A stretch of 31,670 nt of DNA from a virus (Duplodnaviria > Heunggongvirae > Uroviricota > Caudoviricetes): positions 1-31,670 of IMG/VR virus record IMGVR_UViG_649989948_000010; one strand, written 5' to 3'. Shown one piece after another: positions 2,335 through 30,761 of this stretch (its first letter is position 1; each line of letters begins with the position of its first letter). The translations under genes and the position numbers were made by a program. Under the pieces are notes generated by a model, which was not told where the DNA came from, did not search any database, and was given only the letters and a program-made list of their open reading frames with translations.

Positions 2335-3897
2335 ATGAAAATGACAAGTATTCAACAACGTGCAGAGCTTCATCGTCAAATCTGGCAAATTGCTAACGAT
2401 GTCAGGGGTTCGGTCGATGGATGGGATTTTAAGCAATACGTTCTGGGCGCACTTTTCTACCGTTTTATCAGCGAAAATTTTTCCAGCTATATTGAAGCCG
2501 GTGATGACAGTATCTGTTATGCGAAACTGGATGACAGCGTAATTACTGATGACATTAAAGACGATGCCATCAAAACCAAAGGTTACTTCATCTACCCAAG
2601 TCAGCTTTTCTGCAACGTAGCTGCGAAAGCAAATACCAATGACAGACTGAATGCAGATTTAAACAGCATCTTCGTTGCTATCGAAAGTTCTGCTTACGGT
2701 TACCCTTCAGAAGCTGACATCAAAGGTTTGTTTGCTGATTTCGATACCACCAGTAACCGCCTGGGTAACACCGTTAAGGATAAAAATGCCCGCCTGGCTG
2801 CGGTTCTGAAAGGGGTTGAAGGGTTAAAGCTTGGCGACTTTAACGAACATCAGATTGACCTGTTCGGCGATGCCTATGAGTTCCTGATTTCTAACTATGC
2901 CGCGAATGCTGGTAAGTCAGGCGGCGAGTTCTTTACACCGCAGCACGTCTCTAAGCTGATTGCACAACTGGCTATGCACGGGCAGACCCACGTTAACAAA
3001 ATCTACGACCCGGCCGCAGGTTCCGGTTCGCTGTTGTTGCAGGCGAAAAAGCAGTTTGATGACCATATCATCGAAGAAGGCTTTTTTGGTCAGGAGATCA
3101 ACCATACGACCTATAACCTGGCGCGTATGAACATGTTTTTGCACAACATCAACTACGACAAGTTTGATATCAAGTTGGGCAATACGCTGACTGAGCCGCA
3201 CTTCAGAGATGAAAAACCGTTTGATGCCATCGTTTCTAACCCGCCGTATTCGGTGAAATGGATTGGCAGCGATGACCCGACGCTGATTAACGATGAACGT
3301 TTTGCCCCGGCTGGCGTTCTGGCCCCCAAATCCAAAGCTGACTTTGCGTTTGTATTACATGCGCTGAACTATCTTTCGGCCAAAGGTCGCGCTGCGATTG
3401 TCTGCTTCCCAGGCATTTTTTACCGTGGCGGCGCGGAGCAGAAAATCCGTCAGTATCTGGTCGACAATAACTATGTCGAAACCGTGATTTCACTGGCACC
3501 GAATCTGTTCTTTGGCACCACTATTGCCGTCAATATTCTGGTGCTGTCTAAACATAAAACGGATACCAAAGTTCAGTTTATTGATGCCAGCGAACTGTTC
3601 AAAAAAGAGACTAACAACAACATTCTGACCGATGCTCATATCGAACAGATTATGCAGGTATTTGCCAGCAAGGAAGATGTTGCTCATCTGGCGAAATCTG
3701 TTGCGTTTGAGACTGTTGTCGCGAATGACTATAACCTGTCGGTGAGCAGCTATGTGGAAGCGAAAGATACTCGCGAAATTATCGATATCGCTGAGCTGAA
3801 TGCTGAGCTGAAAACCACGGTCAGCAAAATCGACCAGTTGCGTAAAGATATTGATGCGATTGTTGCTGAGATTGAAGGTAGCGAGGTACAGGCATGA
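2335..3897 (+). CDS. hsdM: Type I restriction-modification methyltransferase subunit HsdM (type IC-like)
   Basis: 520 aa; N6-adenine MTase motifs ([12 protein letters not shown]); N-terminus matches the EcoR124-family HsdM as I recall it; 4-bp ATGA overlap with hsdS. Confidence 0.93.
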
Positions 3898-5141
3898 GCG
3901 AGCTGAGTTATCTGGAAAAACTGCTGGATGGGGCTGAGGTTGAGTGGGTAGCATTAAATAAATTAGCAACTTTTTTAAAAGGGAAGTCTTTACCTAAAGA
4001 AAAAATAACTCCAGATGGCAATAGATATTGTATTCATTACGGTGAGCTTTTCACTCATTATGGTCCCATAATTGACAAAGTATGCTCAAAAACAAACCAA
4101 GCAATCAATGAGTCAATTCTATCTGAAAAAAATGATGTTCTAATGCCAACGTCAGACGTTACACCAAGAGGTTTGGCTACAGCTAGTTGCATTCAAGAAA
4201 GTGGCGTTATTTTAGGCGGCGATATTTTGATTATTAGATGCTCTGGTGTTGATGGTAGATATCTAAGTAATTTCATAATAAATAACAAAAAAAAGATATT
4301 GCAAATGGTTAAAGGTTCTACTGTTTATCATTTGTATGCTAAAGATATAGGTAAATTACTTATCCCCATCCCTTGCCCCAACAACCCGGAAAAGTCGCTG
4401 GCTATCCAGTCTGAAATCGTCAGGATTCTGGATAAATTTACTGCACTTACCGCTGAGCTTACCGCTGAGCTTAGCATGCGTAAAAAACAATACAACTACT
4501 ATCGCGACCAGTTGTTGAGTTTTAAAGAGGGTGAGGTTGAGTGGAAAGCTTTGGGGGAAATTGGTGAAGTTCGTATGTGTAAACGAATCCTAAAATCACA
4601 AACATCTTCTGAGGGAGAGATTCCATTTTATAAAATTGGGACATTTGGTAAGGAACCCGATTCCTATATATCTAGAAAACTATTTAATGAATTTAAAGAA
4701 AAATATAGTTATCCTAAAGTTGGCGAAGTATTGATTTCTGCCAGTGGGACCATCGGCAGGACTGTTATATTTGATGGTAGGGAATCATATTTCCAGGATA
4801 GCAATATTGTCTGGATTGAAAATAATGAAAAAATAGTTTTAAATAAATATTTATTCTATTTCTATAAAATAGCAAAATGGGGAATATCTGAAGGTGGAAC
4901 TATTAAAAGACTTTATAATGATAACTTAAGAAAACTTATGATACCAGTACCATTTCCTGATTCTCCTGAAAGATCGCTAGTTGAACAACAAAAAATAGTG
5001 AAATTACTGGATAAATTTGATGCTTTGACCAATTCCATCACCGAAGGTCTTCCGCGTGAAATCGAGTTGCGCCAGAAACAATACGAGTACTATCGTGATT
5101 TACTGTTCAGTTTTCCCAAACCTGAAACTATCAGTAACTAA
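3894..5141 (+). CDS. hsdS: Type I restriction-modification specificity subunit HsdS
   Basis: 415 aa; conserved central ([16 protein letters not shown]) and C-terminal ([37 protein letters not shown]) regions flanking two AT-rich variable domains. Confidence 0.9.
4448..4471 (+). repeat. Tandem 12-bp repeat (TACCGCTGAGCT x2) encoding TAEL-TAEL in the HsdS central spacer
   Basis: Direct tandem duplication read in the sequence; repeat number in this spacer sets recognition-site spacing in type IC systems. Confidence 0.85.
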
Positions 5142-5262
5142 TTGACCATTGCTACCGACCGGATCACCTTAACATCCGGTCTATATAGAGACTATTTTTT
5201 ACACGCCGGAAGTCGCCCTTAAAGCCCTTCCGGCCCTTGCCAGACGGCACAAAGGATGCGCT

Positions 5263-8200
5263 ATGACTCATCAGACACACACCATTGCTGAATCCAATAA
5301 CTTTATCGTTCTTGATAAGTACATCAAAGCCGAGCAAACAGGCGACAGCTACCAGAGCGAATCGGACCTGGAACGTGAACTGATTCAGGATCTGCGGAAT
5401 CAGGGCTATGAATTTATTTCCGTAAAATCTCAGTCGGCGATGCTGGCCAACGTTCGGGAACAGCTTCAGAACCTCAATGGTGTGGTGTTTAATGACAGCG
5501 AATGGCGGCGTTTCACGGAGCAGTATCTGGATAACCCGAGCGATGGCATCCTGGATAAGACCCGTAAAATCCATATCGACTATATTTGCGACTTTATTTT
5601 TGATGACGAGCGTCTTGAGAACATCTATTTGATAGATAAAAAGAATCTCATGCGCAACAAGGTGCAGATTATCCAGCAGTTTGAACAGACGGGTTCTCAT
5701 GCTAACCGTTATGACGTCACGATCCTGGTTAATGGCTTACCGCTGGTACAAATCGAACTGAAAAAGCGCGGCGTGGCGATTCGTGAGGCCTTTAACCAGA
5801 TACATCGTTACAGCAAAGAGAGTTTTAACAGCGAAAATTCTCTGTTTAAGTATCTGCAACTGTTTGTCATTTCCAACGGCACCGATACCCGTTACTTTGC
5901 CAACACGACAAAGCGCGATAAAAACAGTTTTGACTTCACCATGAATTGGGCGAAATCAGACAACACGCTGATTAAAGACCTCAAAGACTTTACCGCCACC
6001 TTTTTCCAGAAACATACCCTGCTTAATGTCTTAGTGAACTACAGCGTATTCGATGTTAGCCAAACGCTACTGGTGATGCGACCGTACCAGATTGCCGCCA
6101 CTGAGCGCATTCTGTGGAAAATTAAGAGTTCCTTTACAGCGAAGAACTGGTCAAAACCGGAAAGCGGTGGGTATATCTGGCACACTACCGGTTCAGGTAA
6201 AACCCTCACCAGCTTTAAAGCCGCGCGTCTGGCAACAGAGCTGGACTTTATTGATAAAGTCTTCTTCGTGGTCGACAGGAAAGACCTCGATTACCAGACC
6301 ATGAATGAATATAAGCGTTTTTCGCCAGACAGCGTCAACGGCTCGGAAAATACCGCAGGTCTTAAACGCAATCTGGATAAGGACGATAACAAAATTATCG
6401 TCACCACTATTCAGAAACTTAATAACCTGATGAAAGCAGAAAGCGACCTGCCTGTATACAATCAGCAAGTGGTGTTTATATTTGATGAATGTCACCGCAG
6501 CCAGTTTGGAGAAGCGCAGAAAAACCTGAAGAAGAAATTCAAACGCTATTATCAGTTTGGTTTTACCGGCACACCTATTTTCCCGGAAAACGCCTTAGGC
6601 TCAGAAACGACCGCCAGCGTATTTGGTCGTGAATTGCATTCGTATGTAATTACCGATGCGATTCGTGATGAAAAAGTGCTCAAATTCAAGGTGGACTACA
6701 ACGATGTGCGGCCACAGTTTAAATCTTTAGAGACAGAAACCGACGAGAAAAAACTGAGTGCGGCTGAAAATCAGCAGGCATTTCTTCATCCCATGCGTAT
6801 ACAGGAAATTACGCAATATATTCTGAATAACTTCCGCCAGAAGACCCACCGTACTTTCCCAGGTTCCAAAGGCTTTAATGCCATGCTGGCAGTGAGTAGC
6901 GTGGATGCCGCGAAAGCCTATTACGCGACGTTTAAACGGTTACAAGAGGAAGCAGCTAATAAATCGGCTACCTATAAACCGCTGCGTGTTGCAACAATCT
7001 TCTCCTTTGCCGCCAATGAAGAACAAAATGCCATTGGTGAAATTTCCGATGAAACTTTTGATACCAGCGCAATGGACAGCAGTGCTAAAGAGTTTCTTGA
7101 CGCTGCAATTCGTGAGTATAACAGCTATTTTAAAACTAACTTCAGCACCGACAGTAACGGTTTTCAGAACTACTATCGTGATTTAGCCCAACGGGTTAAA
7201 AATCAGGATATCGATCTGTTAATTGTCGTTGGGATGTTTTTAACCGGCTTCGACGCTCCAACATTGAACACGCTATTCGTCGATAAAAACTTGCGTTTTC
7301 ACGGCCTGATGCAGGCATTCTCCCGTACCAACCGCATTTATGACGCTACTAAAACCTTCGGTAACATCGTCACTTTTCGGGATCTGGAACGCTCAACCAT
7401 TGATGCCATAACGCTGTTTGGTGATAAAAATACTAAAAATGTGGTGTTAGAAAAGAGTTATGCTGAGTATATGGAAGGCTTTACAGATGCTGCCACTGGT
7501 GAAGCTAAACGCGGCTTTATGGCAGTAGTTTCAGAACTGGAACAACGGTTCCCTGACCCTGCCAGTATTGAAAGTGAAAAAGAGAAGAAAGACTTCGTAA
7601 AACTGTTTGGTGAATACCTGCGTGCCGAGAACATCCTGCAAAACTATGATGAATTTGCCACGCTGAAAGCCCTGCAACAAATCGATCTTAGCGATCCTGT
7701 TGCGGTAGAAAAATTCAAAGCAGAACATTATGTGGATGATGAAAAGTTCGCTGAATTGCAAACAATTCGTCTCCCTGCTGAACGCAAGATTCAGGATTAT
7801 CGTTCTGCCTATAACGATATTCGCGACTGGCAGCGCCGTGAGAAAGAAGCTGAGAAAAAAGAGAAATCAACCACTGACTGGGATGACGTAGTTTTTGAGG
7901 TCGATTTGCTGAAGTCTCAGGAAATAAACCTGGATTATATCCTTGGACTGATTTTCGAACACAACAGACAAAATAAAGGCAAGGGCGAAATGATCGAAGA
8001 GGTCAAACGCTTAATTCGTTCAAGCCTGGGGAACCGGGCGAAAGAGGGCCTGGTGGTCGATTTTATTCAGCAAACGAACCTGGATGATTTACCAGACAAA
8101 GCCAGTATCATTGAGGCATTCTTTACGTTTGCTCAACGCGAACAGCAACGTGAAGCAGAAGCATTGATAAAAGAAGAAAATCTCAATGAAGAGGCGGCGA

Positions 8201-8379
8201 AACGCTATATTCGCACGTCTTTAAAACGCGAATACGCCACCGAAAATGGCACAGAATTAAACGAGACATTACCAAAACTTAGTCCGTTAAACCCGCAATA
8301 TAAAACGAAAAAACAGACCGTTTTCCAGAAAATCGTCACGTTTATTGAAAAGTTCAAAGGAGTAGGTGGGCAGATATAG
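5263..8379 (+). CDS. hsdR: Type I restriction endonuclease subunit HsdR (type IC-like)
   Basis: 1038 aa; SF2 helicase motifs (TGSGKT, DECHRS), type I HsdR architecture; AGGA RBS. Confidence 0.93.
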
Positions 8380-12197: not shown

Positions 12198-12788
12198 CTA
12201 CTTGTTATAAACAAAACCAATATCTTTCTTGTGAGGCATATCTGCTGCTGAAAAAGCTGCGATCTTCGCGAGTCGATCACATATTTCATTTTCACGATGC
12301 CCGGCGTGACCTTTAACCCACTTCCAGCGAACATTATGTCGACTTGCGGCCTCATCCAGACGCTTCCACAGATCAACATTCTTTACCGGTTTTTTGTCAG
12401 AAGTCATCCATCCATTGCGTTTCCACCATTTCATCCACTGTGTCATGCCGTTTTTCAGATACTGGCTATCAGAGTACAAAATAACGTTGCATGGATATTT
12501 CAAACGCTCCAGCCCGATAAGTGCCCCCATCATCTCCATGCGGTTATTGGTGGTGCTATGAAAACCATCTGAGAACTCGCGTTCCTCACCACCATACTGG
12601 AGAACTATACCGTAACCGCCCGGGCCACCCGGATTTTTAAGGCAAGAGCCATCACTGAAGATTTTCACGGTTTTAAGCTGGGGATTGAACTCTACGACAG
12701 GCGTTGTGGAATTGGTGCGGGGAGAATTTTTGTTTTTGTCATTTTTGCGAGTTTTTGCTTGCGATCGGGCTGGTGTCTTCGTCGTCAT
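12198..12788 (-). CDS. rnhA: Ribonuclease HI
   Basis: Strong match to E. coli RnhA motifs (FTDGSC, TNNRMEL-like, [21 protein letters not shown]); start placed at internal MTTKT with AGGAG RBS rather than the longer ORF-track start at 12875. Confidence 0.85.
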
Positions 12789-13373
12789 ATAAACTCCTGA
12801 ATCAAGCGCCGCGCCGATTTTTTTTCCTCGCGCGTGCGCACACGCGTGCGTGTTAATAATTATTAAAATAAACAAATTACTTCCCAGAACAGGTTTTTAT
12901 AAACCTGAACTGAACGAACGAAGTGAGTGAAGTTCACCTCGAACGAAGTGAGAGGTTGTCTTTTCAGGTAATACTCTCCCAGGGAGGTGAGTACAAAATT
13001 TCCTCACCAACCTGGTCGTTTCATAACCTGAAAAGTTATGACCTAAGTCTACTGCCAGCTTAGGCTTGGGAAGTTATGGATGACAGCACCCCAGAACCGA
13101 GATCTTCCCACACTTTATGAAGGGGAGTACTGGATTCAACCTCTCGAAACACCCCAGACTCGACAATCATAAAGTGACCCTTGTCTCTGCTCACTTTGGT
13201 TCCCCCTTCCCCAACCCCTAAACGGTGCCGGTTCTACGCTGGTAGTGAGCTTTTTTAAACCTGACGCCAGTGACGCTTACCCCCACCCATCAGGTCGAGC
13301 CTCCAATCTACGACTGGAAACTATCAGATCTTAGCACTTACAATTCACTTTATGAATAGTTTGTACTTATCTA

Positions 13374-13628
13374 TCATTTCGATTGATTATTTTTTCGACC
13401 ATGTAGTTGAACATTCAAGGCAAACACCTCGTTGATCAACTCACCTAAAAGCTGTTCAACAAGTTCGCGATGCTCCCCAAGATGCAAGCACTTAATTGCC
13501 CATTCGTACAAGTTGAAAGCCTGCTCACGATCTTTCATCATTTCACGAGCCTGGGCCAGAAAATCGCTCTCTACGAGCGCAACGACATTAGTCGGGTATG
13601 ACATGTTGGTTTCCTTAAAGTGGTTCAT
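13374..13628 (-). CDS. Hypothetical protein (84 aa)
   Basis: ORF in operon context; no family recognised. Confidence 0.4.
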   Translation of the reverse strand: MNHFKETNMSYPTNVVALVESDFLAQAREMMKDREQAFNLYEWAIKCLHLGEHRELVEQLLGELINEVFALNVQLHGRKNNQSK

Positions 13629-13710
13629 AAAATCGATTTTAAAGCGTCTGGGAAGGGGTTCTAGTGGATTCTGTAGTGGTGTTCAGGTCTGGGAGTCTCT
13701 GATATAAAAC

Positions 13711-13769
13711 AGCCTGCTTCCGTATATTAATAATTAATATGTAGTTATTTATATATACAGAAGCAGGCT
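13711..13769 (-). terminator. 10-bp perfect inverted repeat (AGCCTGCTTC/GAAGCAGGCT) enclosing a 39-nt AT-rich loop, downstream of the methylase gene
   Basis: Stem read directly; followed on the minus strand by GTTTTAT; loop contains TATAAATA on the minus strand. Confidence 0.4.
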
Positions 13770-13790
13770 AATTACAGACGCCAGAACAAA

Positions 13791-14384
13791 CTAAGCAGCC
13801 TTCTTTGATGGTCTTTTTTTCCTGATCACATTCGCAGGATCATACCCTCCCAGACTTTTCATGACGTCCAAAGGGATCTTGCTTATAGAGTGCCCAGCGT
13901 CCTGACAGAATCCTCGAAAAACAACGAGCATACTGCCACCTGGGTTGATGTTTACTTCTACCTGACCCAGATTTACGTCAGGCTCGACAAACGCTACGCG
14001 GCCACCAGACAGAATAATCGTCTCATTCGCACACTCTGTTGCACGCTCATACCACTTTGTATCTAGGGATTGAGGAATTAGCATCACTGTTGTAACTCCA
14101 CGAGCCTGCTCACGTATAGCCGCATCAATCCAGGGGGAGATTTTGGAGTAGGGTGGATTGAGGAAGGCAATTGTACCTGGCTGTCCCCATTCAGATTTCA
14201 AAGCATCACGCTCAACGCCTATGAAATTAGGCAGCTTTGCATTGTCCTTGTTGCAGGCAACGTCAACATCAAATGTCACTCCAAGATAACGTTGAATGGC
14301 AGAAAACAGCCAGTCAGGTGTTCTCCAGAGGTCACGAAGAGAGTTGTCGCGCTTTCGCTGTTTGATTTTTTCGGCTGCAATCAT
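13791..14384 (-). CDS. Phage-type DNA N6-adenine methyltransferase (Dam-like, orphan)
   Basis: 197 aa with NPPY motif (LNPPYS); size and layout typical of phage orphan Dam-family methylases. Confidence 0.7.
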   Translation of the reverse strand: MIAAEKIKQRKRDNSLRDLWRTPDWLFSAIQRYLGVTFDVDVACNKDNAKLPNFIGVERDALKSEWGQPGTIAFLNPPYSKISPWIDAAIREQARGVTTVMLIPQSLDTKWYERATECANETIILSGGRVAFVEPDVNLGQVEVNINPGGSMLVVFRGFCQDAGHSISKIPLDVMKSLGGYDPANVIRKKRPSKKAA

Positions 14385-14461
14385 CTTCTTTCTCGATAGG
14401 TAAGTATATACCTATTTTTGCATTTGATTTTATGTCTGGCAATCAAATAAAACGCGCCAGA

Positions 14462-14499
14462 AATGCAAACGAGAAGCTCTCTGGCGCGTTTTTGTGGTG
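14462..14499. terminator. Bidirectional intrinsic terminator
   Basis: 10-bp stem ACGCGCCAGA/TCTGGCGCGT, 18-nt loop, A-run upstream and T-run downstream. Confidence 0.5.
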
Positions 14500-14567
14500 C
14501 TGGGTATGTGATTGGCTTACCCAGTACTATAAAGCTCTCTGTGGGCTTTATTTTAAGTAGGGGAACG

Positions 14568-15377
14568 TCATCCAATAGTGTACTCCGCGACAAACTTCTT
14601 AACGATCGGTGATTCTTCGTTCAATGTTAGATTTCCACCGTCTCTAACGGCAATTCCTGTCGCTGGAAATACAGCCATCATTTGCCCAGCCTGAGTTGAC
14701 GCAGTGTTAAGCGGATACGGTTTTTCTGGATTGCTCATTAAAGCAATCTTAATACTATTACTTGTAGCCTTCTTTTCTGTGAGAAGGTGTCTCATGGAAA
14801 TTACCGTGTAAACACTAATATCTGGACCTCCGCTAAACCAATTAAGAAGGTTTAATATCTTATCCTTTGCTTTGACAGGCGCGTTATCGTAAGCGTCTAA
14901 GAAAATATCTTTTTCTAAGCCCGCTTTATTGAAAAACGAATCATCTTTATCACTTAAAGTAAAACGAGGACCTCTTGCAGTACGCGCTTTTTTATTTGTA
15001 TTGCTATCATTTGACTGTTGAACTTTTAATTCATCATTAACCTCAACACACTCTTCAACCTCAATAAATCCCAATTGTTCTGGCTCGTTTTCGGCAGCTT
15101 CAACACTTTCAGCGTTAATTACGTTTATAGGCTCATGCGCTAACTCCAACTCATTTAAAGCAGAGCTGAAATCACCTGCTTTTTCTTCATTGAACAGTTC
15201 TTCGGCAACATCATCAGAACTCATGGCTACGCCAGCATCTAGGCCGAGCAGCAGATCGTCAATATCATCAGTATTTTCAACCTGTGCAGCTTTTTTTACT
15301 GGTTCATCAAGTGATTGCAACATGGCTGTCAGCTCGTCCAGATCATCATTTGTCATTACATTTTCAACCGAACTCAT
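14568..15377 (-). CDS. Hypothetical protein (269 aa) with strongly acidic N-terminal half
   Basis: GGAGA RBS; N-terminal ~120 aa rich in D/E with repeated DDLDEL-like motifs; C-terminal domain unrecognised. Confidence 0.5.
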   Translation of the reverse strand: MSSVENVMTNDDLDELTAMLQSLDEPVKKAAQVENTDDIDDLLLGLDAGVAMSSDDVAEELFNEEKAGDFSSALNELELAHEPINVINAESVEAAENEPEQLGFIEVEECVEVNDELKVQQSNDSNTNKKARTARGPRFTLSDKDDSFFNKAGLEKDIFLDAYDNAPVKAKDKILNLLNWFSGGPDISVYTVISMRHLLTEKKATSNSIKIALMSNPEKPYPLNTASTQAGQMMAVFPATGIAVRDGGNLTLNEESPIVKKFVAEYTIG

Positions 15378-15500
15378 GTAAGTCTCCTTCTGTTTGGTTA
15401 CATTTGCGTTTCGATGGCTGCATTTTGACTAAACCTATCAGGCGGAAAAGTATTAAATACAGGCAGAAAATGATTGAAAGGCGACTGTTCTTTAAAAAAA

Positions 15501-15527
15501 GCCTACTTTAAACTTTTTAAAGTAGGC
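15501..15527. terminator. Bidirectional intrinsic terminator after the exonuclease gene
   Basis: 12-bp stem GCCTACTTTAAA/TTTAAAGTAGGC, 3-nt loop, flanked by A7 and T-rich runs. Confidence 0.55.
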
Positions 15528-15534
15528 TTTTGTT

Positions 15535-16083
15535 TTACACAATTTCAGAGGGTAATTTAAAAAATCCGTACTTATTACGTGCCTTAAAGAAGCATTGCAT
15601 CATTAAGTTTGTGTCATATAAGGCACTATGTGCTTTGGCATGATCGTATATAAAGCCAAGAGAGAAGGCCAACTCTTCAAGGCGGGGACGTTTACCGTCT
15701 TCTGTGGCCCACAGGGAAAATAGAGTGTCAATCAATGGGATGTCTGGAAGCGAAAAACCGTAACTTTTCAGCTCATGCCTAATAAACGGAATATCGAACG
15801 CTTCGCCGTTGTGGGCTATCCAAATATCGGAAGAAGAGAGATACGAAGCGACAGATGAAGCGTGATCGGCTAGTAACGGCTCGGCGGCTAAATCTTCAAG
15901 ACTGATGCCGTGTACCGCTTGCGCTTTCGGATCGATACTGCGACGCGGGTTGAACCGCATTACAAAACTATCAACCATTGTCTGTGTCTCAATTTCGTAC
16001 TTCACCATTGCGATTTCAATGATTTTATGGCCTGAGAGGAAATCAAGACCTGTTGATTCAATGTCCACCCCTGTAGCAATCAC
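15535..16083 (-). CDS. DnaQ-like 3'-5' exonuclease (DEDDh family)
   Basis: Exo I motif VDIESTG near N-terminus, Exo III motif HSALYD; GTG start overlapping the upstream stop (GTGA). Confidence 0.7.
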   Translation of the reverse strand: MIATGVDIESTGLDFLSGHKIIEIAMVKYEIETQTMVDSFVMRFNPRRSIDPKAQAVHGISLEDLAAEPLLADHASSVASYLSSSDIWIAHNGEAFDIPFIRHELKSYGFSLPDIPLIDTLFSLWATEDGKRPRLEELAFSLGFIYDHAKAHSALYDTNLMMQCFFKARNKYGFFKLPSEIV

Positions 16084-16874
16084 TTTTTATCTCCTTTTAC
16101 TGGTCGTTTGGACGGTGTGAAGATGGCAGCTTCAACATCCCACCCCCTCAAAATTCGCTGCGAGATAATGGTCGCAGTCAAGCCAACCTCTCTAGCCCAT
16201 TCGGTAATTCGCTGAGTTCTGCCGCGACACTCGATCAGACGCTTACTATCTCGGTTGGCATACGTGTCGACGCTGGCGTTAAGCGCGCGATCTAATGGCC
16301 ACCCTTTCTTGATTCGATAGTGAAGAGTTGATGTCTGAATCTCGGCTCTTTTAGCCCATTGTGAGAGAGTCAGCTTTTCCCCCTTATGCTCCAAAATTAA
16401 GTTTGAACGCGTGTTATTGGCCTGTTCTTCAAAAGTCGCCCATCTGCAATTTTCAGGTTCGTAGTCACCATTCACATCTTTGCGATCAAGAGACATCCCC
16501 TCTGGTCGCTCTCCCATGTCAGCATAAAAGTTTTCAAATATTTGCCACCGCTCGCAGACTTTGATACCTCGGCCGCCATACCACTTATAGGCGTGATGGG
16601 TTGGTTTTTCACATCGTTCCCGCATACCCAGCCATATACGATAAATTGGCGTTTTACTCATACCATGAGGATTTACGCTACGGCGATGTGCGTTGTAGAC
16701 ACAGCCACACGATATTGTCGCCCCGTGATTTAGCTTCCCGTAACTAACCAGGCAGGTGTTGCCGCAATCGCAGATGCAATCCCAAAGTCGCCCTTGTTTG
16801 TTTGAAATACCGGAATATTTAAGTGCAACCAACTTTCCAAAACGTTTACCTGTTATGTCTACCGGTTGTCCCAT
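16080..16874 (-). CDS. Putative homing-endonuclease-like DNA-binding protein
   Basis: 264 aa; Cys cluster (CICDCG...CGC), YRIWLGMRERC...YGGRGIKVCERW motif, then two HTH-like repeats; AAGGAG RBS. Confidence 0.4.
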   Translation of the reverse strand: MGQPVDITGKRFGKLVALKYSGISNKQGRLWDCICDCGNTCLVSYGKLNHGATISCGCVYNAHRRSVNPHGMSKTPIYRIWLGMRERCEKPTHHAYKWYGGRGIKVCERWQIFENFYADMGERPEGMSLDRKDVNGDYEPENCRWATFEEQANNTRSNLILEHKGEKLTLSQWAKRAEIQTSTLHYRIKKGWPLDRALNASVDTYANRDSKRLIECRGRTQRITEWAREVGLTATIISQRILRGWDVEAAIFTPSKRPVKGDKK

Positions 16875-16883
16875 TACTACTCC

Positions 16884-17303
16884 TTACAACTTCTTAGCGC
16901 CCTTAAGTAGTGCGCTACGTACAAATTGAGCCGCTTTTTTCAAAGTTTCTTCACTGGTTTCACAGACAACCGGATCTTTCCACTTACCTGACGCCGTGTT
17001 GAGAATGTTGATTTGGTTGCTATCCAGACAAACAGAGACGTAAAGCACCGTGCCACCAGCCAGCATCAAATGCATAGGAAACAGAGGCTTTTTACTGTCT
17101 TCACTGAACTGAGACATGGCGATGTTAATGGCTTCACCCACTTGTGTACCAACAAGCCCCTGCGCAGTTTCGAATATGGCACGAATAGCCAGACGAGCCT
17201 CTCGATCGCTCATAAGCGACCGGGAATGTTCGTCCGCTACACGAATCAAAGCCTCTGTTGTTTTCCGATCCAGTTCATCTTCAAGCAACATTTCACTAAA
17301 CAT
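16884..17303 (-). CDS. Hypothetical protein (139 aa)
   Basis: AAGGA RBS; stop abuts the next start. Confidence 0.45.
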   Translation of the reverse strand: MFSEMLLEDELDRKTTEALIRVADEHSRSLMSDREARLAIRAIFETAQGLVGTQVGEAINIAMSQFSEDSKKPLFPMHLMLAGGTVLYVSVCLDSNQINILNTASGKWKDPVVCETSEETLKKAAQFVRSALLKGAKKL

Positions 17304-17364
17304 TTTTTATCCTTAACCCATTTTGAGAGTTTTATTGTCGCAATGTCGAAGAGGCGAACAATTT

Positions 17365-18009
17365 CTAATGAACGGTCACTCGGCCACAGAACCGGTTTTC
17401 TATCTTTTCTACAGCGTTATCTAGCATTCTCATCACTGATCTGGCTCTTGCTTCAACTGTGCGATACCGGTTGGAAACGACGAAGGTTTGCAGATCTCCC
17501 CTTTGCGGATGCAGGTGAATTTTTGTCAGTTCCCCGCACATCAACGCATCAATACGAGCGACATACAGACGGTCTAATGATGCTCGTTGTGACCGCAAGT
17601 AATCTCGCTCTGAGAGAGCGACCCCCGGGCGTAGGCCAGCAATGGCGTTAAAGTTTGAAATAGCAGTTTTGTGGCAAAACTTTTCGATATCGAGGGCTAA
17701 CTCAATACACCGATCTTCATTTGTATGGCCGACCAAATCCAACGTGTAGGCCATAACATCAGCAGGTGTGCGATCGATAACAAAGCCTTCAGCACCACGC
17801 GTAAGTAGCTCTATATGCTTTGCTATTTCCATTTGAATCTGAAGCCGCTCATATAGAGGCATAGAATCACCTACTCGAACACCGAGGCGGCTCATCAAAC
17901 TTCCGACACCAGCATCCACGTAAGGGATTCCGTAATGTTTGTCGATATATTTAGCCAGGGTTGTTTTCCCACTGCCCTGAGCACCAGTGATCCCAATCCG
18001 GTAATCCAT
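17365..18009 (-). CDS. P-loop kinase, probable deoxynucleoside monophosphate kinase
   Basis: Walker A GAQGSGKTT; sits in the dNTP-synthesis operon with 1-nt overlap to the DHFR stop. Confidence 0.5.
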   Translation of the reverse strand: MDYRIGITGAQGSGKTTLAKYIDKHYGIPYVDAGVGSLMSRLGVRVGDSMPLYERLQIQMEIAKHIELLTRGAEGFVIDRTPADVMAYTLDLVGHTNEDRCIELALDIEKFCHKTAISNFNAIAGLRPGVALSERDYLRSQRASLDRLYVARIDALMCGELTKIHLHPQRGDLQTFVVSNRYRTVEARARSVMRMLDNAVEKIENRFCGRVTVH

Positions 18010-18485
18010 TACGACCTTCTGTATACGATCTGCGAAAAGCCAGGCTCTTCCTCGCTGGCTCGTTGGGTATAAGCTGTTTCAACAGGCACAAAGCCTAAAT
18101 TACGCATCATGCTTGCCGGGAAGAATGCATCGGCGTTTGGCACATCAACGCCGATGTGGGAGAGCCAAATCTCTTCAACATGCGGCATGAATAGCGAGTA
18201 AATTTGTTCCCCGCCAATCACCCACACAGGCTCTGGTAATCGCAACACATCATCCACACCAGCAGGGTAGAATCCATTTGGTACAAAGCCATGAGAGCGC
18301 GTCAAAACGAGGTTATGACGCTCTGGAAGAGGGCGTTTGAGACTTTCCATCGTTTTACGCCCCATAACGACAGTGGCGTTTTTGGTGAGTCTCTTAAATA
18401 GCTTCAGATCGGTAGAACAACGCCAGGGCAGTTCATTCGCTATGCCGATCTCATAGTTACGGCCAACAGCAGCTATCATCTTCAT
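18009..18485 (-). CDS. frd: Dihydrofolate reductase
   Basis: 158 aa; DHFR pattern (MIAAVGRNYEIG...LPW, VVMGRKT.ESL) and typical size. Confidence 0.85.
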   Translation of the reverse strand: MKMIAAVGRNYEIGIANELPWRCSTDLKLFKRLTKNATVVMGRKTMESLKRPLPERHNLVLTRSHGFVPNGFYPAGVDDVLRLPEPVWVIGGEQIYSLFMPHVEEIWLSHIGVDVPNADAFFPASMMRNLGFVPVETAYTQRASEEEPGFSQIVYRRS

Positions 18486-18895
18486 TTGCTCACCTCATAG
18501 ATGACCGGTCTATGATGAGAGTCAGCTAAAGCGGCACGGAGTCGAGGATCGTGCACCAGCGCAGCGATAAGCAGATCGCCTTTATGCTCCGCTAATGTGC
18601 GCTTAATATGCTTCTCATAACTAGTGCTATTCGGTACGAGGTGAAGCCAGTCGTAATCAACACCAAAATCTTTCAGCCATCGTTTAGTGGGCGCTTCAAG
18701 AGTTTCAGAGCGGCTACTGATAAGCACCACTTCAGCCCCTGAGCGAGCAAAACCACGCAACATACGGCTGGTGGGGAAAATGAGTTCATCACCGGCAATG
18801 AATTGGCCTGCATCCGAGTCAGATACAGATTTACGATGGCTGGTATTTGCCAGCACACCTTCAATTTCGCATAAGACATACATACCTCTTGCCAT
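18482..18895 (-). CDS. Hypothetical protein, possibly a HAD-like phosphatase or nucleotidase
   Basis: Start reset to ATG at 18895 (MARGMYVLCEIEGVLA), 2 nt after the thyA stop; motif resembles HAD motif I but with Glu in place of both Asp. Confidence 0.3.
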   Translation of the reverse strand: MARGMYVLCEIEGVLANTSHRKSVSDSDAGQFIAGDELIFPTSRMLRGFARSGAEVVLISSRSETLEAPTKRWLKDFGVDYDWLHLVPNSTSYEKHIKRTLAEHKGDLLIAALVHDPRLRAALADSHHRPVIYEVSK

Positions 18896-18896
18896 A

Positions 18897-20000
18897 TCAC
18901 ACCGCCACTGGAACCTTGATCCACGGTAGAGGGGCATAGCCAAGAATAAGAATCTCGTCCCATTTGAAATCATCCAGCTCAGACCATTCATTAGGGAATA
19001 TAACGACCGGATCTGAATGCTCTGGAGCCTGTCGTTGCATTAGCTCACACACACCTTCCATGTGGTTGTTGTACAAATGCACGTCAAAGCCAAAATGCAC
19101 AAATGCACCGGCCATGTGACCCGTAATCTTCGCGAGAAAATGAGTGAGAATGCCATAGCCAGCAATATTGAATGGCATACCAACAAAAGTGTCTACGCTA
19201 CGCTGTACGAGGCAGGAGTTGAGGATGCGTTTGGGGATTCCAAGTTCATCCAGTTCAGCTTCAGTAACACTGCCGTCTATCTCCAGATCGTATAGCATCT
19301 TGGTGTAGATAGACTCGTAACCGAGGCGACTGTGTTGAAGACCAATGTCAGTTGCCATCGTTAAACGGGTTTCAAAATCCAGCTCACGACTCCACAAAGA
19401 GAAGACAAAGTGGCAAGGTGGCAGTTTCATATCCTCAAGCTCGCCTACGTTCCATGCGTTAAGCATGATGCGACGATCGGTAGGGTTCATGCGCAGTGTA
19501 TCGACAATACGCTGTAGCTGATCGATTTCACGGGACAGCACTACGCGATCTTCACTGATACCCAGGTATCCCTCGACTTTGTACCCGCGTTCACGGAAAG
19601 TAGCGATCTTGCTCAGATATTCACTATGGCTCACGATGCGGGTATCTTCCCATCGACGCCACTGCTTACCGTAAACCGGCCCCAAATCGCCATTCTCATC
19701 GGCCCATGCATCCCAAATCTTAACGCCGTTATCCTTGAGAAATTGGATGTTGCCCGTGCCTTTCAGATACCACTCAAGTTCGACAAGCAGTGGCTTAAGA
19801 TTTACCGCCTTTCCAGAAATAAGCGGCACAGTCCCACCAGTAAGCATGTAGTAAGAGGGAACGTAACAGGTGCTTAAAGTACCAGTGCCTGTGCGATCAT
19901 CAGCCTGCACGCCGCTTTTAAGCACCGTCTCAATAACTTTTGCATACGATGCGTTTGTTACCTGACCGTTCGTATGCTCACGATTCAAAAGGAGTGACAC
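18897..20000 (-). CDS. thyA: Thymidylate synthase (ThyA family, long form with insertions)
   Basis: Motifs DRTGTGT, GDLGPVYGKQWR, active-site PCH, DxHxYxNH; start placed at in-frame GTG with GAGG RBS (ORF-track start at 20027 is also GTG). Confidence 0.85.
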   Translation of the reverse strand: MSLLLNREHTNGQVTNASYAKVIETVLKSGVQADDRTGTGTLSTCYVPSYYMLTGGTVPLISGKAVNLKPLLVELEWYLKGTGNIQFLKDNGVKIWDAWADENGDLGPVYGKQWRRWEDTRIVSHSEYLSKIATFRERGYKVEGYLGISEDRVVLSREIDQLQRIVDTLRMNPTDRRIMLNAWNVGELEDMKLPPCHFVFSLWSRELDFETRLTMATDIGLQHSRLGYESIYTKMLYDLEIDGSVTEAELDELGIPKRILNSCLVQRSVDTFVGMPFNIAGYGILTHFLAKITGHMAGAFVHFGFDVHLYNNHMEGVCELMQRQAPEHSDPVVIFPNEWSELDDFKWDEILILGYAPLPWIKVPVAV

Positions 20001-26482: not shown

Positions 26483-26908
26483 ATGGAATTACAGGACTGG
26501 CGAAAAGAACCTCGTAAAAACTATTCGAATGAATTCAAACTTCGTATGGTGGAACTGGCATCACAACCTGGAGCTTGTGTTGCACAGATTGCACGTGAAA
26601 ATGGCGTCAATGATAATGTTATTTTCAAATGGCTCAGGCTCTGGCAGAACGAAGGGCGTGTTTCACGGCGTCTTCCGGTAACGACCTCTTCTGACACTGG
26701 CGTTGAATTATTACCTGTAGAAATAACGCCGGATGAGCAGAAAGAACCTGTGGCGGCCATTGCGCCGTCTTTATCCACTTCCACTCAGACCAGAGTCAGT
26801 GCCAGTTCCTGCAAGGTGGAATTCCGTCACGGTAACATGACGCTGGAAAATCCATCGCCAGAGCTGCTCACAGTGTTGATCCGTGAACTGACCGGGAGGG
26901 GAAGATGA
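26483..26908 (+). CDS. IS66-family accessory protein (orfA)
   Basis: 141 aa HTH-like protein; 4-bp overlap with orfB. Confidence 0.85.
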   Translation: MELQDWRKEPRKNYSNEFKLRMVELASQPGACVAQIARENGVNDNVIFKWLRLWQNEGRVSRRLPVTTSSDTGVELLPVEITPDEQKEPVAAIAPSLSTSTQTRVSASSCKVEFRHGNMTLENPSPELLTVLIRELTGRGR

Positions 26909-27255
26909 TCTCACTCCCATCAGGTACCCGTATCTGGCTCGTTGCCGGCGTTACCGATATGCGTAAATCCTTCAACGGACTGGGAGAACAGGTACAACAT
27001 GTGCTGAATGATAATCCCTTCTCCGGTCACCTGTTTATCTTCCGTGGCCGACGGGGTGACACCGTCAAAATTCTTTGGGCTGATGCTGATGGTCTGTGCC
27101 TGTTCACCAAACGCCTGGAGGAAGGCCAGTTTATCTGGCCTGCGGTACGTGACGGCAAGGTATCCATTACCCGCTCGCAACTGGCAATGCTCCTCGATAA
27201 GCTGGACTGGCGTCAGCCAAAAACATCCAGCCGTAACTCACTGACAATGTTGTAA
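26905..27255 (+). CDS. IS66-family accessory protein (orfB)
   Basis: 116 aa; conserved IS66 orfB pattern (LWADADGLCLFTKRLEEGQF). Confidence 0.85.
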   Translation: MISLPSGTRIWLVAGVTDMRKSFNGLGEQVQHVLNDNPFSGHLFIFRGRRGDTVKILWADADGLCLFTKRLEEGQFIWPAVRDGKVSITRSQLAMLLDKLDWRQPKTSSRNSLTML

Positions 27256-27285
27256 AAAACTCCTGACCGCATTATAAAAACGGTC

Positions 27286-28899
27286 ATGAGTCAGAAATAC
27301 CTCATTCGCATCGCAGAGCTGGAAAGGTTGCTCTCTGAGCAGGCTGAAGCCCTCCGTCAGAAAGACCAGCAACTGAGTCTGGTTGAAGAGACGGAAGCCT
27401 TCCTGCGCTCTGCACTGACACGTGCCGAAGAAAAGATCGAAGAAGATGAACGGGAAATAGAACATCTGCGGGCTCAGATAGAAAAACTGCGCCGGATGCT
27501 GTTCGGTACCCGTTCTGAAAAACTGCGTCGTGAAGTTGAACTGGCTGAGGCTCTGCTGAAACAACGTGAACAGGACAGCGATCGTTACAGTGGGCGGGAA
27601 GACGATCCTCAGGTTCCCCGCCAGTTGCGACAGTCGCGCCATCGTCGTCCGTTACCGGCACACCTTCCCCGTGAAATACACCGCCTGGAGCCAGAAGAAA
27701 GCTGTTGCCCGGAGTGTGGCGGTAAGCTGGATTATCTGGGGGAAGTCAGCGCTGAACAGCTGGAACTGGTGAGCAGTGCCCTGAAAGTGATCCGCACAGA
27801 ACGGGTAAAAAAAGCCTGTACAAAATGTGACTGTATTGTTGAAGCACCGGCGCCGTCTCGCCCGATAGAGCGTGGTATCGCGGGCCCCGGATTACTTGCC
27901 CGCGTGTTAACGGGAAAATACTGCGAACATCTGCCACTGTATCGTCAGAGTGAAATCTTTGCCCGCCAGGGTGTCGAACTGAGCCGGGCCTTACTCTCCA
28001 ACTGGGTTGACGCGTGCTGCCAGTTAATGACACCGGTGAATGATGCCCTGTACCGTTATGTAATGAACACCCGCAAGATTCACACTGATGACACACCGGT
28101 AAAGGTACTGGCACCGGGTCAGAAAAAGGCGAAAACAGGGCGTATCTGGACGTATGTCCGGGATGATCGCAATGTGGGTTCGTCATCTCCTCCAGCGGTC
28201 TGGTTCGCGTACTCGCCGAACCGGCAGGGGAAACACCCGGAGCAACACCTCCGCCCCTTCCGGGGTATCCTGCAGGCGGATGCGTTCACAGGTTACGACA
28301 GGTTGTTCAGTGCAGAACGTGAAGGTGGTGCACTGACAGAAGTTGCGTGCTGGGCCCATGCCCGGCGAAAAATCCACGATGTATACATCAGCAGCAAAAG
28401 TGCGACGGCAGAAGAAGCACTGAAGCGAATCAGTGAACTGTACGCCATCGAGGATGAAATACGGGGATTACCGGAGTCAGAGCGTCTTGCCGTCAGGCAG
28501 CAGCGAAGCAAAGTGTTACTGACGTCGCTGCATGAATGGATGGTGGAGAAGAATGGTACGCTGTCGAAAAAATCCAGACTGGGCGAAGCGTTCAGCTATG
28601 TACTGAATCAGTGGGATGCCCTCTGTTATTACAGTGATGACGGTCTGGCGGAGGCGGATAATAATGCTGCGGAAAGAGCGCTTCGTGCAGTCTGTCTCGG
28701 AAAGAAAAACTTTATGTTCTTTGGCAGCGATCACGGCGGCGAGCGTGGAGCACTGTTGTACGGGCTGATCGGCACCTGCCGTCTGAACGGTATCGATCCG
28801 GAAGCGTATCTGCGCCATATCCTGAGCGTACTGCCGGAATGGCCTTCCAACCGAGTTGATGAACTCCTGCCATGGAACGTAGTACTCACCAATAAATAA
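27286..28899 (+). CDS. IS66-family transposase (orfC)
   Basis: 537 aa; coiled-coil N-terminus, CxxC zinc-finger-like region, conserved catalytic core. Confidence 0.85.
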   Translation: MSQKYLIRIAELERLLSEQAEALRQKDQQLSLVEETEAFLRSALTRAEEKIEEDEREIEHLRAQIEKLRRMLFGTRSEKLRREVELAEALLKQREQDSDRYSGREDDPQVPRQLRQSRHRRPLPAHLPREIHRLEPEESCCPECGGKLDYLGEVSAEQLELVSSALKVIRTERVKKACTKCDCIVEAPAPSRPIERGIAGPGLLARVLTGKYCEHLPLYRQSEIFARQGVELSRALLSNWVDACCQLMTPVNDALYRYVMNTRKIHTDDTPVKVLAPGQKKAKTGRIWTYVRDDRNVGSSSPPAVWFAYSPNRQGKHPEQHLRPFRGILQADAFTGYDRLFSAEREGGALTEVACWAHARRKIHDVYISSKSATAEEALKRISELYAIEDEIRGLPESERLAVRQQRSKVLLTSLHEWMVEKNGTLSKKSRLGEAFSYVLNQWDALCYYSDDGLAEADNNAAERALRAVCLGKKNFMFFGSDHGGERGALLYGLIGTCRLNGIDPEAYLRHILSVLPEWPSNRVDELLPWNVVLTNK

Positions 28900-28993
28900 G
28901 CGTCAATACGGTGCTCCGTTGACGCTTACTTCAGGTGCATCCGGTCCCCCTTGTTTTTGATACAAAACACGCCTCACAGACGGGTAATTTTGC

Positions 28994-29002: not shown

Positions 29003-29756
29003 TTAAACTGCAAGGGACTTCCCCATAAGGTTACAATCGTTAATGTCATAAAGCGCCAGCCGTCAGCCCTACAGGGTGCAATGTATCTTTTAAACACCTG
29101 TTTATATCTCCTTTAAACTACTTAATTACATTCATTTAAAAAGAAAACCTATTCACTGCTTGTCCTATGGACAGACAGATATGCACCTCCCACCGTAAAC
29201 GGCGGGCCCCAACCGGAGCCACTTTAGTTACAACACACAAAACCAACCTCCAGAAAAACCCCGAACCAGCGCAGAACTGAAACCACAAAGCCCCTCCCTC
29301 ATAACTGAAAAGCGGCCCCGCCCCGGCCCTTCGGGCCGGAACAGAGTCGCTTTTAATTATGAATGTTGTAACTACATCTTCATCGCTGTCAGTCTTCTCG
29401 CTGGAAGTTCTCAGTACACGCTCGTAAGCGGCCCTCACGGCCCGCTAACGCGGAGATACGCCCCGACTTCGGGTAAACCCTCGTCGGGACCACTCCGACC
29501 GCGCACAGAAGCTCTCTCATGGCTGAAAGCGGGTATGGTCTGGCAGGGCTGGGGATGGGTAAGGTGAAATCTATCAATCAGTACCGGCTTACGCCGGGCT
29601 TCGGCGGTTTTACTCCTGTATCATATGAAACAACAGAGTGCCGCCTTCCATGCCGCTGATGCGGCATATCCTGGTAACGATATCTGAATTGTTATACATG
29701 TGTATATACGTGGTAATGACAAAAATAGGACAAGTTAAAAATTTACAGGCGATGCA

Positions 29757-30410
29757 ATGATTCAAACACGTAATCAATATCTGCAGTTTATGCTGGTTAT
29801 GCTGGCTGCATGGGGCATTAGTTGGGGAGCCAGATTTGTCATGGAGCAGGCCGTTCTGCTTTATGGATCAGGAAAAAACTATTTGTTCTTCAGTCATGGT
29901 ACTGTTCTGATGTACCTGCTGTGTGTTTTCCTGGTATACCGCCGTTGGATAGCTCCGCTACCGGTCGTTGGTCAGCTGCGCAACGTTGGCGTACCGTGGC
30001 TGGTCGGTGCGATGGCCGTGGTGTATGTCGGTGTATTTCTGCTCGGTAAGGCGCTGGCTCTGCCTGCTGAGCCATTTATGACGAAACTTTTTGCCGATAA
30101 GTCCATACCTGACGTGATCCTGACGTTGCTGACCATCTTTATCCTTGCCCCGTTGAATGAGGAAACGCTGTTCCGGGGGATTATGCTGAACGTCTTCCGT
30201 TCACGGTACTGCTGGACGATGTGGCTGGGGGCGCTGATAACGTCGTTGTTGTTCGTCGCCGCGCACAGCCAGTATCAGAACCTGCTGACACTGGCAGAAC
30301 TGTTCCTGGTGGGGTTGATTACATCAGTGGCCAGGATCAGAAGTGGTGGCCTGCTGCTGCCGGTATTGCTGCATATGGAAGCAACCACGCTGGGTTTACT
30401 GTTTGGTTGA
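29757..30410 (+). CDS. CPBP-family intramembrane protease-like protein (CAAX protease family)
   Basis: 217 aa polytopic membrane protein with EETLFRG, FVAAHSQY and LLH motifs. Confidence 0.7.
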   Translation: MIQTRNQYLQFMLVMLAAWGISWGARFVMEQAVLLYGSGKNYLFFSHGTVLMYLLCVFLVYRRWIAPLPVVGQLRNVGVPWLVGAMAVVYVGVFLLGKALALPAEPFMTKLFADKSIPDVILTLLTIFILAPLNEETLFRGIMLNVFRSRYCWTMWLGALITSLLFVAAHSQYQNLLTLAELFLVGLITSVARIRSGGLLLPVLLHMEATTLGLLFG

Positions 30411-30467
30411 AAGTTATATTTTTATTAAACATTGTGCGTTAAAGCCTGGTGTGTTTTTTTAGTGGAT

Positions 30468-30485: not shown

Positions 30486-30502
30486 TTTTATGGAGGTGAA
30501 GA

Positions 30503-30760: not shown

Positions 30761-30761
30761 C

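Follow-up and report, generated by a model that had tools for sequence, protein, structure and literature searches.

An EcoR124-family Type IC hsdS allele with reassorted target recognition domains and a two- or three-unit TAEL spacer on an Escherichia coli phage-plasmid

The window (the whole stretch of DNA that was analysed, 31,670 nucleotides) carries on its plus strand a set of hsd genes in the order hsdM-hsdS-hsdR, which is the Type IC order, and all three open reading frames (ORFs) are of full length. The hsdM gene (2335..3897; WP_024198547.1, with the RefSeq start at 2341) encodes the Type IC N6-adenine methyltransferase subunit and contains the Pfam domains N6_Mtase and HsdM_N. It is followed by hsdS (3894..5141), an uninterrupted ORF for a specificity subunit of 415 amino acids (WP_001293038.1) with two Pfam Methylase_S domains, the ATG of which overlaps the stop codon of hsdM (ATGA, 3894-3897), and by hsdR (5263..8379), which encodes the Type IC translocase/endonuclease subunit of 1038 amino acids, with HSDR_N, SWI2_SNF2/ResIII, T1R_D3-like and EcoR124_C domains. 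An hsdS pseudogene was rejected, since all three ORFs are intact. The hsdS-hsdR intergenic region (5142..5262, plus strand) is 121 bp long and, unlike prr-type Type IC loci, lacks the anticodon-nuclease gene prrC, so a prr-type locus was rejected as well. One promoter-like hexamer pair, TTAACA-18-TATTTT, lies in this gap at 5169-5198. EcoR124I has a two-promoter organisation in which hsdR is transcribed separately; by analogy, the site at 5169-5198, which was no better than chance in a promoter/terminator scan that did not rise above the shuffled expectation, may be a separate promoter of hsdR.

The HsdS protein has the Type IC layout of a short conserved N-terminus, TRD1 (the N-terminal target recognition domain), a central helix with TAEL repeats, TRD2 (the C-terminal target recognition domain) and a conserved C-terminus. 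On the plus strand, the N-terminal conserved frame (3894..3947; GC 0.52, GC3 0.61) aligns to residues 1-28 of EcoR124 HsdS, while TRD1 (3948..4361; GC 0.32, GC3 0.20) gives no alignment to the EcoR124 TRD1. The central conserved coiled-coil frame D1 (4362..4523; GC 0.46, GC3 0.57) is near-identical to that of EcoR124 and is the site of crossover (see below); TRD2 (4524..5003; GC 0.32, GC3 0.22) belongs to a co-transferred module of about 4530-5032, and the C-terminal conserved frame D2 (5004..5138; GC 0.41, GC3 0.44) aligns to the C-terminus of EcoR124 HsdS, its early part being AT-rich and travelling together with TRD2. A preliminary description of this DNA had placed the variable domains at 3950-4380 and 4560-4980, which are good approximations, and had called them strongly AT-rich, which agrees with our values (both TRDs GC 0.32, GC3 approx. 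0.21) and with the comparison of TRDs and frames by chi-square (GC p=2e-5, GC3 p=4e-10). Its figure of about 50% GC for the conserved frames holds only roughly (N-terminal 0.52, central 0.46, C-terminal 0.41).

The central frame contains two tandem 12-bp units of TACCGCTGAGCT (4448..4471, plus strand), which encode TAEL-TAEL (HsdS residues 186-193), exactly the two spacer units that had been reported earlier. The perfect period-12 tract around them extends over 4446-4473 (2.3 copies). No other 12-mer is duplicated exactly in tandem within the 31.67-kb window, of which this tract is also the top-scoring tandem repeat. A phase-variable system of the phasevarion type was rejected, as there are only 2-3 in-frame 12-bp copies and hsdM and hsdS contain no long SSR; an invertible, shufflon-type hsdS was also rejected, with neither extra or invertible hsdS cassettes nor a recombinase adjoining the locus.

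Membership in the Type IC family is judged by the similarity of HsdM and HsdR to those of EcoR124I, alongside complementation. HsdM matched the EcoR124 M protein (7bst_D) over its full length (residues 1-519, 1153 bits), HsdR matched EcoR124 HsdR (2w00_A) over its full length (residues 1-1038, 2274 bits), and phmmer aligned residues 1-28 and 154-415 of HsdS to EcoR124 HsdS, with near-identical frames. These matches, together with the EcoR124_C domain on HsdR, uphold the earlier assignment of the gene as a Type IC hsdS. The likeness to EcoR124I/II, the Type IC prototype of plasmids R124 and R124/3, includes the gene order and extends to the 12-bp TAEL unit, which has the same DNA sequence. We therefore consider it very probable (approx. 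0.9) that the hsdS ORF encodes a functional specificity subunit of an EcoR124-family Type IC enzyme that is predicted to be active. By analogy with EcoR124I, one HsdS would associate with two HsdM subunits to form the methyltransferase M2S1, to which HsdR would be added to give an ATP-driven restriction enzyme; each of the AT-rich TRDs would recognise one half-site of a target that is bipartite and asymmetric, while the coiled coil of the conserved helices would fix the distance between them. The system is of a known kind, and the mechanism is nothing new.

The window matches CP146657.1 at 100% identity, and the hsdMSR genes lie in the phage-plasmid context metG/apbC/S24-peptidase/theta/hsdMSR/nrdAB/thyA/dfrA51; the carrier of hsdS is a segment of an SSU5/pHCM2-like phage-plasmid of E. 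coli MS 145-7. The HsdS allele is not new, because the identical protein (WP_001293038.1, 100% identity) is present in approx. 39 complete E. coli genomes (all allele and TRD counts in E. coli refer to a sample of 5,426 complete genomes), where it is carried by phage-plasmids of about 110 kb, plasmids of 64-73 kb and chromosomal islands. Backbones that differ by about 2% in hsdM still share a 100% identical hsdS. EcoR124, by contrast, resides on an IncFIV conjugative plasmid. In the phage collection there was no copy of the full-length hsdS; the conserved frames alone were matched, covering at most 26% of the query.

Unlike the frames, the two TRDs bear no relation to the GAA and RTCG domains of EcoR124I/II, as the preliminary description had stated for EcoR124I. 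Their identity to the EcoR124 TRDs is below 30%; in the phmmer comparison with EcoR124 HsdS, TRD1 was unaligned throughout and TRD2 was spanned weakly, and local alignments to the EcoR124I-type TRDs of two loci (L013 and L026) were short and insignificant. No other TRD type sampled exceeded 29% identity. Within E. coli, TRD1 was found in 45 records at 99.0-100% identity (43 at 100%), five of which have a different or broken TRD2, and TRD2 was found in 59 records, approx. 19 of them with other TRD1s; both occur together in 40. In sequenced examples an identical TRD1 is joined to at least three different TRD2s, and an identical or 98.8%-identical TRD2 to at least five different TRD1s, including the GAA-type TRD1 of EcoR124I, e.g., in p88COLEC-2, which combines an EcoR124I-type TRD1, three TAEL units and the TRD2 of the window. 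The window equals locus L007 over 3894-4523 and locus L010 over 4434-5141, which places the crossover breakpoints at 4434-4523, within the central conserved frame, and the shared TRD blocks are 98.8-100% identical, with more diverged flanks (hsdM 85-98%, hsdR 93-97%). Moreover, a single residue separates the position-2 TRD of pCP53-113k from a position-1 TRD of two IMG/VR loci, and a small sample already gave a TRD pool of at least 9 x 11 types. Outside E. coli, the closest relatives of TRD1 among the matches listed are 57-64% identical, while TRD2 has homologues of 75-84% identity in many taxa (at least 1,629 matches in all, up to 84% identity); in these large protein searches the matches listed were shorter than 250 amino acids and the counts are lower bounds. 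The labels of the matched proteins read 'restriction endonuclease subunit S', without a motif.

Repeat number proved variable among isolates, a check proposed in the preliminary description: the same TRD pair occurs with two and with three TAEL units. Among the 40 E. coli records with both TRDs, 35 have two units, four have three (one of these disrupted by IS1) and one is frameshifted. The three-unit allele (419 amino acids, WP_094310829.1) was found in three different backbones, in addition to the IS1-disrupted copy. Plasmid P2 of isolate 162 (two units) and pGD31-F25 (three units) differ over 12.4 kb by one SNP, the 12-bp unit and one 7-bp indel, while pYUSHP6-3 (two units) and pYUSHP31-2 (three units) differ by the 12-bp unit, three SNPs and a 1-bp indel, these SNPs and the indel all lying outside the hsd genes. 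Scans for two to four units gave one match in GTDB representatives (Mixta tenebrionis, two units) and, in IMG/VR, 17 matches with two units, five with three and none with four; neither these 23 matches nor the remaining loci that were fetched included a four-unit allele. Units of 12 bp would be gained and lost by slippage or unequal crossing-over.

That the TRDs were exchanged by recombination, as proposed earlier, is supported by their reassortment in the E. coli population, the central-frame breakpoints and the more diverged flanks; the AT-richness that had been offered as its sign does not serve as proof. All the Type IC TRDs that were examined are rich in AT (GC 0.31-0.41), so composition is weak evidence of exchange. 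We lean towards the view that AT-richness is a lasting trait of the entire pool of Type IC TRDs rather than a mark of recent import, having its source in old low-GC ancestry, a mutational bias of mobile DNA or DNA-binding surfaces rich in K, N and I, in which case composition is silent on when the hsdS allele was assembled. All eight other TRDs that were measured have this property (GC 0.35-0.41, GC3 0.30-0.44), and the GAA TRD1 of EcoR124I type has GC 0.35. Outside the enterobacteria, the nearest homologues on plasmids come from low-GC Firmicutes (Lactococcus 54%, Macrococcus 59%, Clostridium 41%). However, the TRDs of this hsdS are the most extreme of the measured set (GC3 0.20-0.22), and since GC3 is a signal of synonymous sites, amino-acid composition alone cannot explain the bias. 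A pool-wide AT-richness is also compatible with exchange, which the reassortment data show independently; hsdS is a mosaic in which homologous recombination within the conserved frames swaps TRD modules. A different objection concerns activity, namely that the phage-plasmid carries the locus as a passenger that is silent or in decay, with hsdS intact but unexpressed or inactive and the change between two and three units being neutral slippage. Disrupted copies of the allele do exist elsewhere (IS1 in strain 3385, a 4-bp deletion in HCP6S3_I1), the TRD1-bearing locus of ET729 is split into fragmented ORFs, and two neighbours in the same plasmid, theta and rnhA, are pseudogenes; because of the decayed copies and the fragmented TRD1 locus, the system is evidently not always maintained. 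Yet the three hsd ORFs of the window are of full length, hsdS is 100% conserved although the hsdM of the backbones differs by about 2%, and both repeat states are in frame and correspond to the unit numbers of the active enzymes EcoR124I and EcoR124II, with no four-unit allele in the 23 scan matches or other fetched loci, and we regard a passenger locus as improbable next to a functional specificity subunit.

The question of which DNA sequence the enzyme reads depends on the same two domains. In EcoR124I/II, two TAEL units correspond to an N6 gap and three to an N7 gap (PMC3874165; PMC10644984), and experimental proof of this effect is confined to these enzymes and the EcoDXXI hybrids. EcoR124I, with two units, reads GAA N6 RTCG and EcoR124II, with three, reads GAA N7 RTCG, and both repeat states occur for the TRD pair of the window. 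The half-sites of the latter are expected to differ from GAA and RTCG, because both TRDs are unrelated to the EcoR124I domains. The target is predicted to be bipartite with a gap of the N6 type. As the length of the gap varies with the position in which each TRD sets its adenine, 'N6' here stands for a predicted spacing of the methylated adenines as in EcoR124I (7 in that enzyme) rather than for a number of Ns. In the natural three-unit variant the same half-sites would lie 1 bp farther apart, with an N7-type gap. REBASE gathers motif summaries from long-read assemblies, and it seems rather probable that the recognition sequence is already known there, the TRD pair or its single TRDs matching an entry with a PacBio-read motif, as the allele is present in approx. 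39 complete E. coli genomes and the TRD2 family is very widespread (at least 1,629 matches, up to 84% identity). The searchable literature, on the other hand, mentions neither the protein accessions of the allele nor its motif (the Bibersteinia methylome and ETEC reference-genome papers hold nothing relevant to the allele or its target), TRD1 is rare outside E. coli (next-best identity of 64% among the matches listed), and none of the HsdS structures in the PDB has a related TRD (the best match of TRD2 was 1yf2, E=0.09; TRD1 had none). We only tentatively entertain the bolder idea that the TRD pair reads a never-assigned bipartite target, the gap of which is repeatedly toggled by one 12-bp unit in wild phage-plasmid and plasmid lineages. 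If such toggling is true, it would be the natural, ongoing counterpart of the laboratory switch from R124 to R124/3, and sibling plasmids, as well as phages grown on them, would become instantly mutually restrictable.

Among other Type IC enzymes, EcoDXXI and EcoprrI have three TAEL units, whereas the HsdS of the window has two. Engineered hybrids of EcoR124I and EcoDXXI (EcoDR2, EcoRD2 and others) showed that TRD recombination in the central frame gives predictable specificities and that the number of TAEL units sets the gap, the hybrids behaving as predicted (PMC3874165); p88COLEC-2 is one of their natural equivalents. In Helicobacter pylori, Type I 'domain movement' carries TRDs between alleles and between positions 1 and 2 (Furuta et al. 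2014, PMC3983042), to which the TRD of pCP53-113k is similar as a case of movement between positions, although the H. pylori systems belong to another Type I family and host, and the exchange described here is between phage-plasmids, plasmids and islands within E. coli. TRD exchange is also on record from other methylome studies. The alleles described here form a natural, testable set of examples for the textbook Type IC rules, with the same TRD pair carrying two or three units in near-isogenic plasmids and with TRD2 naturally joined to the well-characterised GAA domain too. EcoR124-type systems, whose M and R subunits hardly vary, are in circulation in clinical and livestock E. coli, where SSU5-like and P1-sized phage-plasmids, smaller plasmids and chromosomal islands carry them, and their combinatorial TRD pool (at least 9 x 11 types) bears on the barriers to plasmid and phage spread.

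The IS1 element of strain 3385 lies in the central frame at a point corresponding to window position 4431, upstream of the TAEL units, and leaves an N-terminal half-HsdS of 187 amino acids, similar in this respect to the EcoDXXI deltaC (Tn5) and EcoR124I(delta50) truncations. Because of the position of IS1, this product is without most of the dimerisation helix and, unlike the laboratory truncations, is probably inactive.

The hsdS gene (3894-5141, + strand; 415 aa, two Pfam Methylase_S domains) is real, intact and of a well-described kind. It follows hsdM (2335-3897, +; Pfam N6_Mtase and HsdM_N), whose stop codon shares an ATGA with the hsdS ATG, and precedes hsdR (5263-8379, +; Pfam HSDR_N, SWI2_SNF2/ResIII, T1R_D3-like and EcoR124_C, the last being the diagnostic domain). 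In a PDB search, HsdM residues 1-519 aligned with the EcoR124 M protein (7bst_D, 1153 bits) and HsdR residues 1-1038 with EcoR124 HsdR (2w00, 2274 bits). Both subunits score very highly against the prototype, whereas the S subunit bears other recognition domains: solely HsdS residues 1-28 and 154-415 aligned with the EcoR124 specificity protein, the conserved frames almost residue for residue, the C-terminal target recognition domain (TRD2) poorly and the N-terminal one (TRD1) without any alignment. For neither TRD was a relative found among solved HsdS structures in the PDB. Judged by these comparisons, hsdMSR is a Type IC (EcoR124-family) system and hsdS a new member, as yet uncharacterised, of a known family; the preliminary description, which had named a Type IC HsdS with recognition domains unlike those of EcoR124I, is correct in substance. 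Only two additions are noteworthy, direct evidence of natural TRD reassortment and recurrent switching of this same allele between two and three spacer repeats (x2 and x3).

Both TRDs are AT-rich, with GC 0.32 and GC3 0.20 in TRD1 (3948-4361, +) and GC 0.32 and GC3 0.22 in TRD2 (4524-5003, +), against 0.52 and 0.61 in the N-terminal frame (3894-3947, +), 0.46 and 0.57 in the central frame (4362-4523, +) and 0.41 and 0.44 in the C-terminal frame (5004-5138, +); TRDs and frames differ significantly (GC, p = 2e-5; GC3, p = 4e-10), and GC equals 0.46 in hsdM, 0.44 in hsdR and 0.46 in the entire window. The frames are therefore not uniformly near 50% GC, as had been described, and the C-terminal frame begins AT-rich because TRD2 moves as a module spanning about 4530-5032. 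An exchange of both domains had been suggested from their composition; since every other extracted Type IC TRD is also AT-rich (GC 0.35-0.41; 0.35 in the EcoR124I-type GAA domain), AT-richness alone is no proof of it.

The exchange is demonstrated by population data. Among E. coli records, TRD1 DNA (3960-4370) was present in 45, TRD2 DNA (4560-4980) in 59 and both in 40. TRD1 is paired with a second TRD2 in pCP53-113k and with a third in strain Z1323CEC0001, while four other TRD1s accompany the window's TRD2 (pC21-4/pEcQE11-421-2, which share one HsdS protein, ZH142, TUM11353 and p88COLEC-2). As pCP53-113k is identical to the window over 3894-4523, and pEcQE11-421-2 over 4434-5141, the crossovers fall within a central-frame segment of about 90 bp that includes the repeats. 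The common TRD blocks are 98.8-100% identical, amid hsdM of 85-98% and hsdR of 93-97% identity, a pattern characteristic of cassettes that have moved into differing backgrounds. At least 9 TRD1 types and at least 11 TRD2 types occur among 43 loci sharing the central frame. In four loci (pCP53-113k, 1435-2754; Z1323CEC0001, 1435-2691; L022 and L032 from IMG/VR) HsdS has, as its C-terminal half, a module of N-terminal type (a TRD followed by IPIPCP...); the position-2 TRD of pCP53-113k equals the position-1 TRD of L022 and L032 except for one residue, so this TRD has shifted between positions.

The spacer was described as carrying two repeats, and exactly two tandem copies of the 12-bp unit TACCGCTGAGCT, encoding TAEL-TAEL, lie at 4448-4471 in a perfect period-12 tract (4446-4473); they are the sole exact 12-mer tandem duplication and the top-scoring tandem repeat of the 31.67-kb window. 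The 3' end of hsdM (3790-3812) holds another 12-bp repeat, near-tandem, GCTGAGCTGAAT (1.9 copies), which encodes AELNAEL and resembles the TAEL unit. Variation in repeat number among isolates, raised as a possibility beforehand, was found in a census of the 40 E. coli records bearing both TRDs: 35 have x2 spacing, 3, on different backbones (97.8, 110.7 and 64.5 kb), carry 12 additional bp and encode an x3 protein of 419 aa (WP_094310829.1), one combines x3 with an IS1 insertion just upstream of the repeat, and one has a 4-bp deletion. Over 12.4 kb, the 12-bp unit, a single SNP and a 7-bp indel separate isolate 162 plasmid P2 (x2) from pGD31-F25 (x3); pYUSHP6-3 (x2) and pYUSHP31-2 (x3) differ by that unit, with three SNPs and a 1-bp indel outside the hsd genes. 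From these two near-isogenic pairs it follows that the change is recent and repeated in the wild. IMG/VR loci with this central frame comprised 17 x2 and 5 x3, and no x4 alleles were seen there.

By direct analogy with EcoR124I, M2S1 would methylate and R2M2S1 would restrict, each TRD reading one half-site at a separation fixed by the coiled coil of the central and terminal frames. EcoR124I, with two TAEL units, recognises GAA N6 RTCG, EcoR124II, with three, has an N7 gap instead, and engineered EcoR124I/EcoDXXI hybrids follow the same rule (PMC3874165; PMC10644984). We thus predict by analogy an asymmetric, bipartite target with EcoR124I adenine spacing, one base pair longer in the x3 variant. 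The half-sites should be other than GAA or RTCG, because neither TRD exceeds 29% identity to any other TRD sampled, both of EcoR124I included. A natural hybrid, p88COLEC-2 (865-2082), joins an EcoR124I GAA-type TRD1 and TAEL x3 to the window's TRD2, whose half-site would be directly readable from the methylome of that hybrid. No papers naming this allele or its motif were found in the searchable literature; REBASE probably lists a motif already, given the many complete genomes that carry it.

Of 5,426 complete E. coli genomes, about 39 carry the identical hsdS (WP_001293038.1), so the allele is already in databases and is no novelty as such; its carriers are phage-plasmids, 64-73-kb plasmids (beside phd/doc) and chromosomal islands. 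The AR_0137 chromosome (13448-19486) has it with an identical HsdM protein in an island adjoining tRNA-Ile, bounded by ISKpn26 and neighboured by CbtA/CbeA, Ag43 and an antirestriction gene, and the whole hsdMSR is therefore mobile between replicon types. Outside E. coli, among the matches listed, TRD1 is rare (next-best 57-64% identity; about 53% in H. pylori half-size HsdS), and the TRD2 family is widespread, at 75-84% in Acidithiobacillus, Psychrobacter, Salmonella, Gallibacterium and Mannheimia; K. pneumoniae plasmids reach 66% and a Lactococcus plasmid 54%.

Decayed copies also exist. In the E. coli 3385 plasmid (2435-4471), IS1A interrupts the central frame of the x3 form at the equivalent of window 4431, duplicating the 9-bp target AGGATTCTG and leaving a 187-aa N-terminal half-HsdS; it is a natural parallel to the EcoDXXI Tn5 truncation, though probably inactive. 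The ET729 chromosome has TRD1 with a different TRD2 in fragmented ORFs, and HCP6S3_I1 (JBWDPT010000001.1) has the window's TRD pair with a 4-bp deletion inside TRD1.

Plasmid unnamed1 of E. coli MS 145-7 (CP146657.1, 198 kb) matches the window with 100% identity. The hsd genes lie in the variable part of an SSU5/pHCM2-like phage-plasmid, where the local genes are metG, apbC, S24 peptidase, theta subunit, hsdMSR, then nrdAB, thyA and dfrA51, an arrangement also found on plasmids of about 110 kb such as D9 plasmid A. At 26485-28901 and 29517-31670, an ISEc23 (IS66-family) element is flanked by truncated genes, with traA/traV/traB beyond, so the phage-plasmid segment appears fused to a conjugative plasmid as a 198-kb cointegrate. 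Upstream of hsdM, the DNA polymerase III theta homologue (1731-1983) carries a frameshift and an internal stop according to its annotation; D9 plasmid A, similar in other respects, has an intact copy. An orphan phage-type N6-adenine methyltransferase (13792-14385, -) and a frameshifted rnhA (12198-12858, -) follow downstream of hsdMSR, and the nrdA/nrdB/thyA nucleotide-metabolism block includes dfrA51 (18011-18487, -), which encodes a trimethoprim-resistant DHFR recently described for SSU5-like phage-plasmids (PMC12217456).
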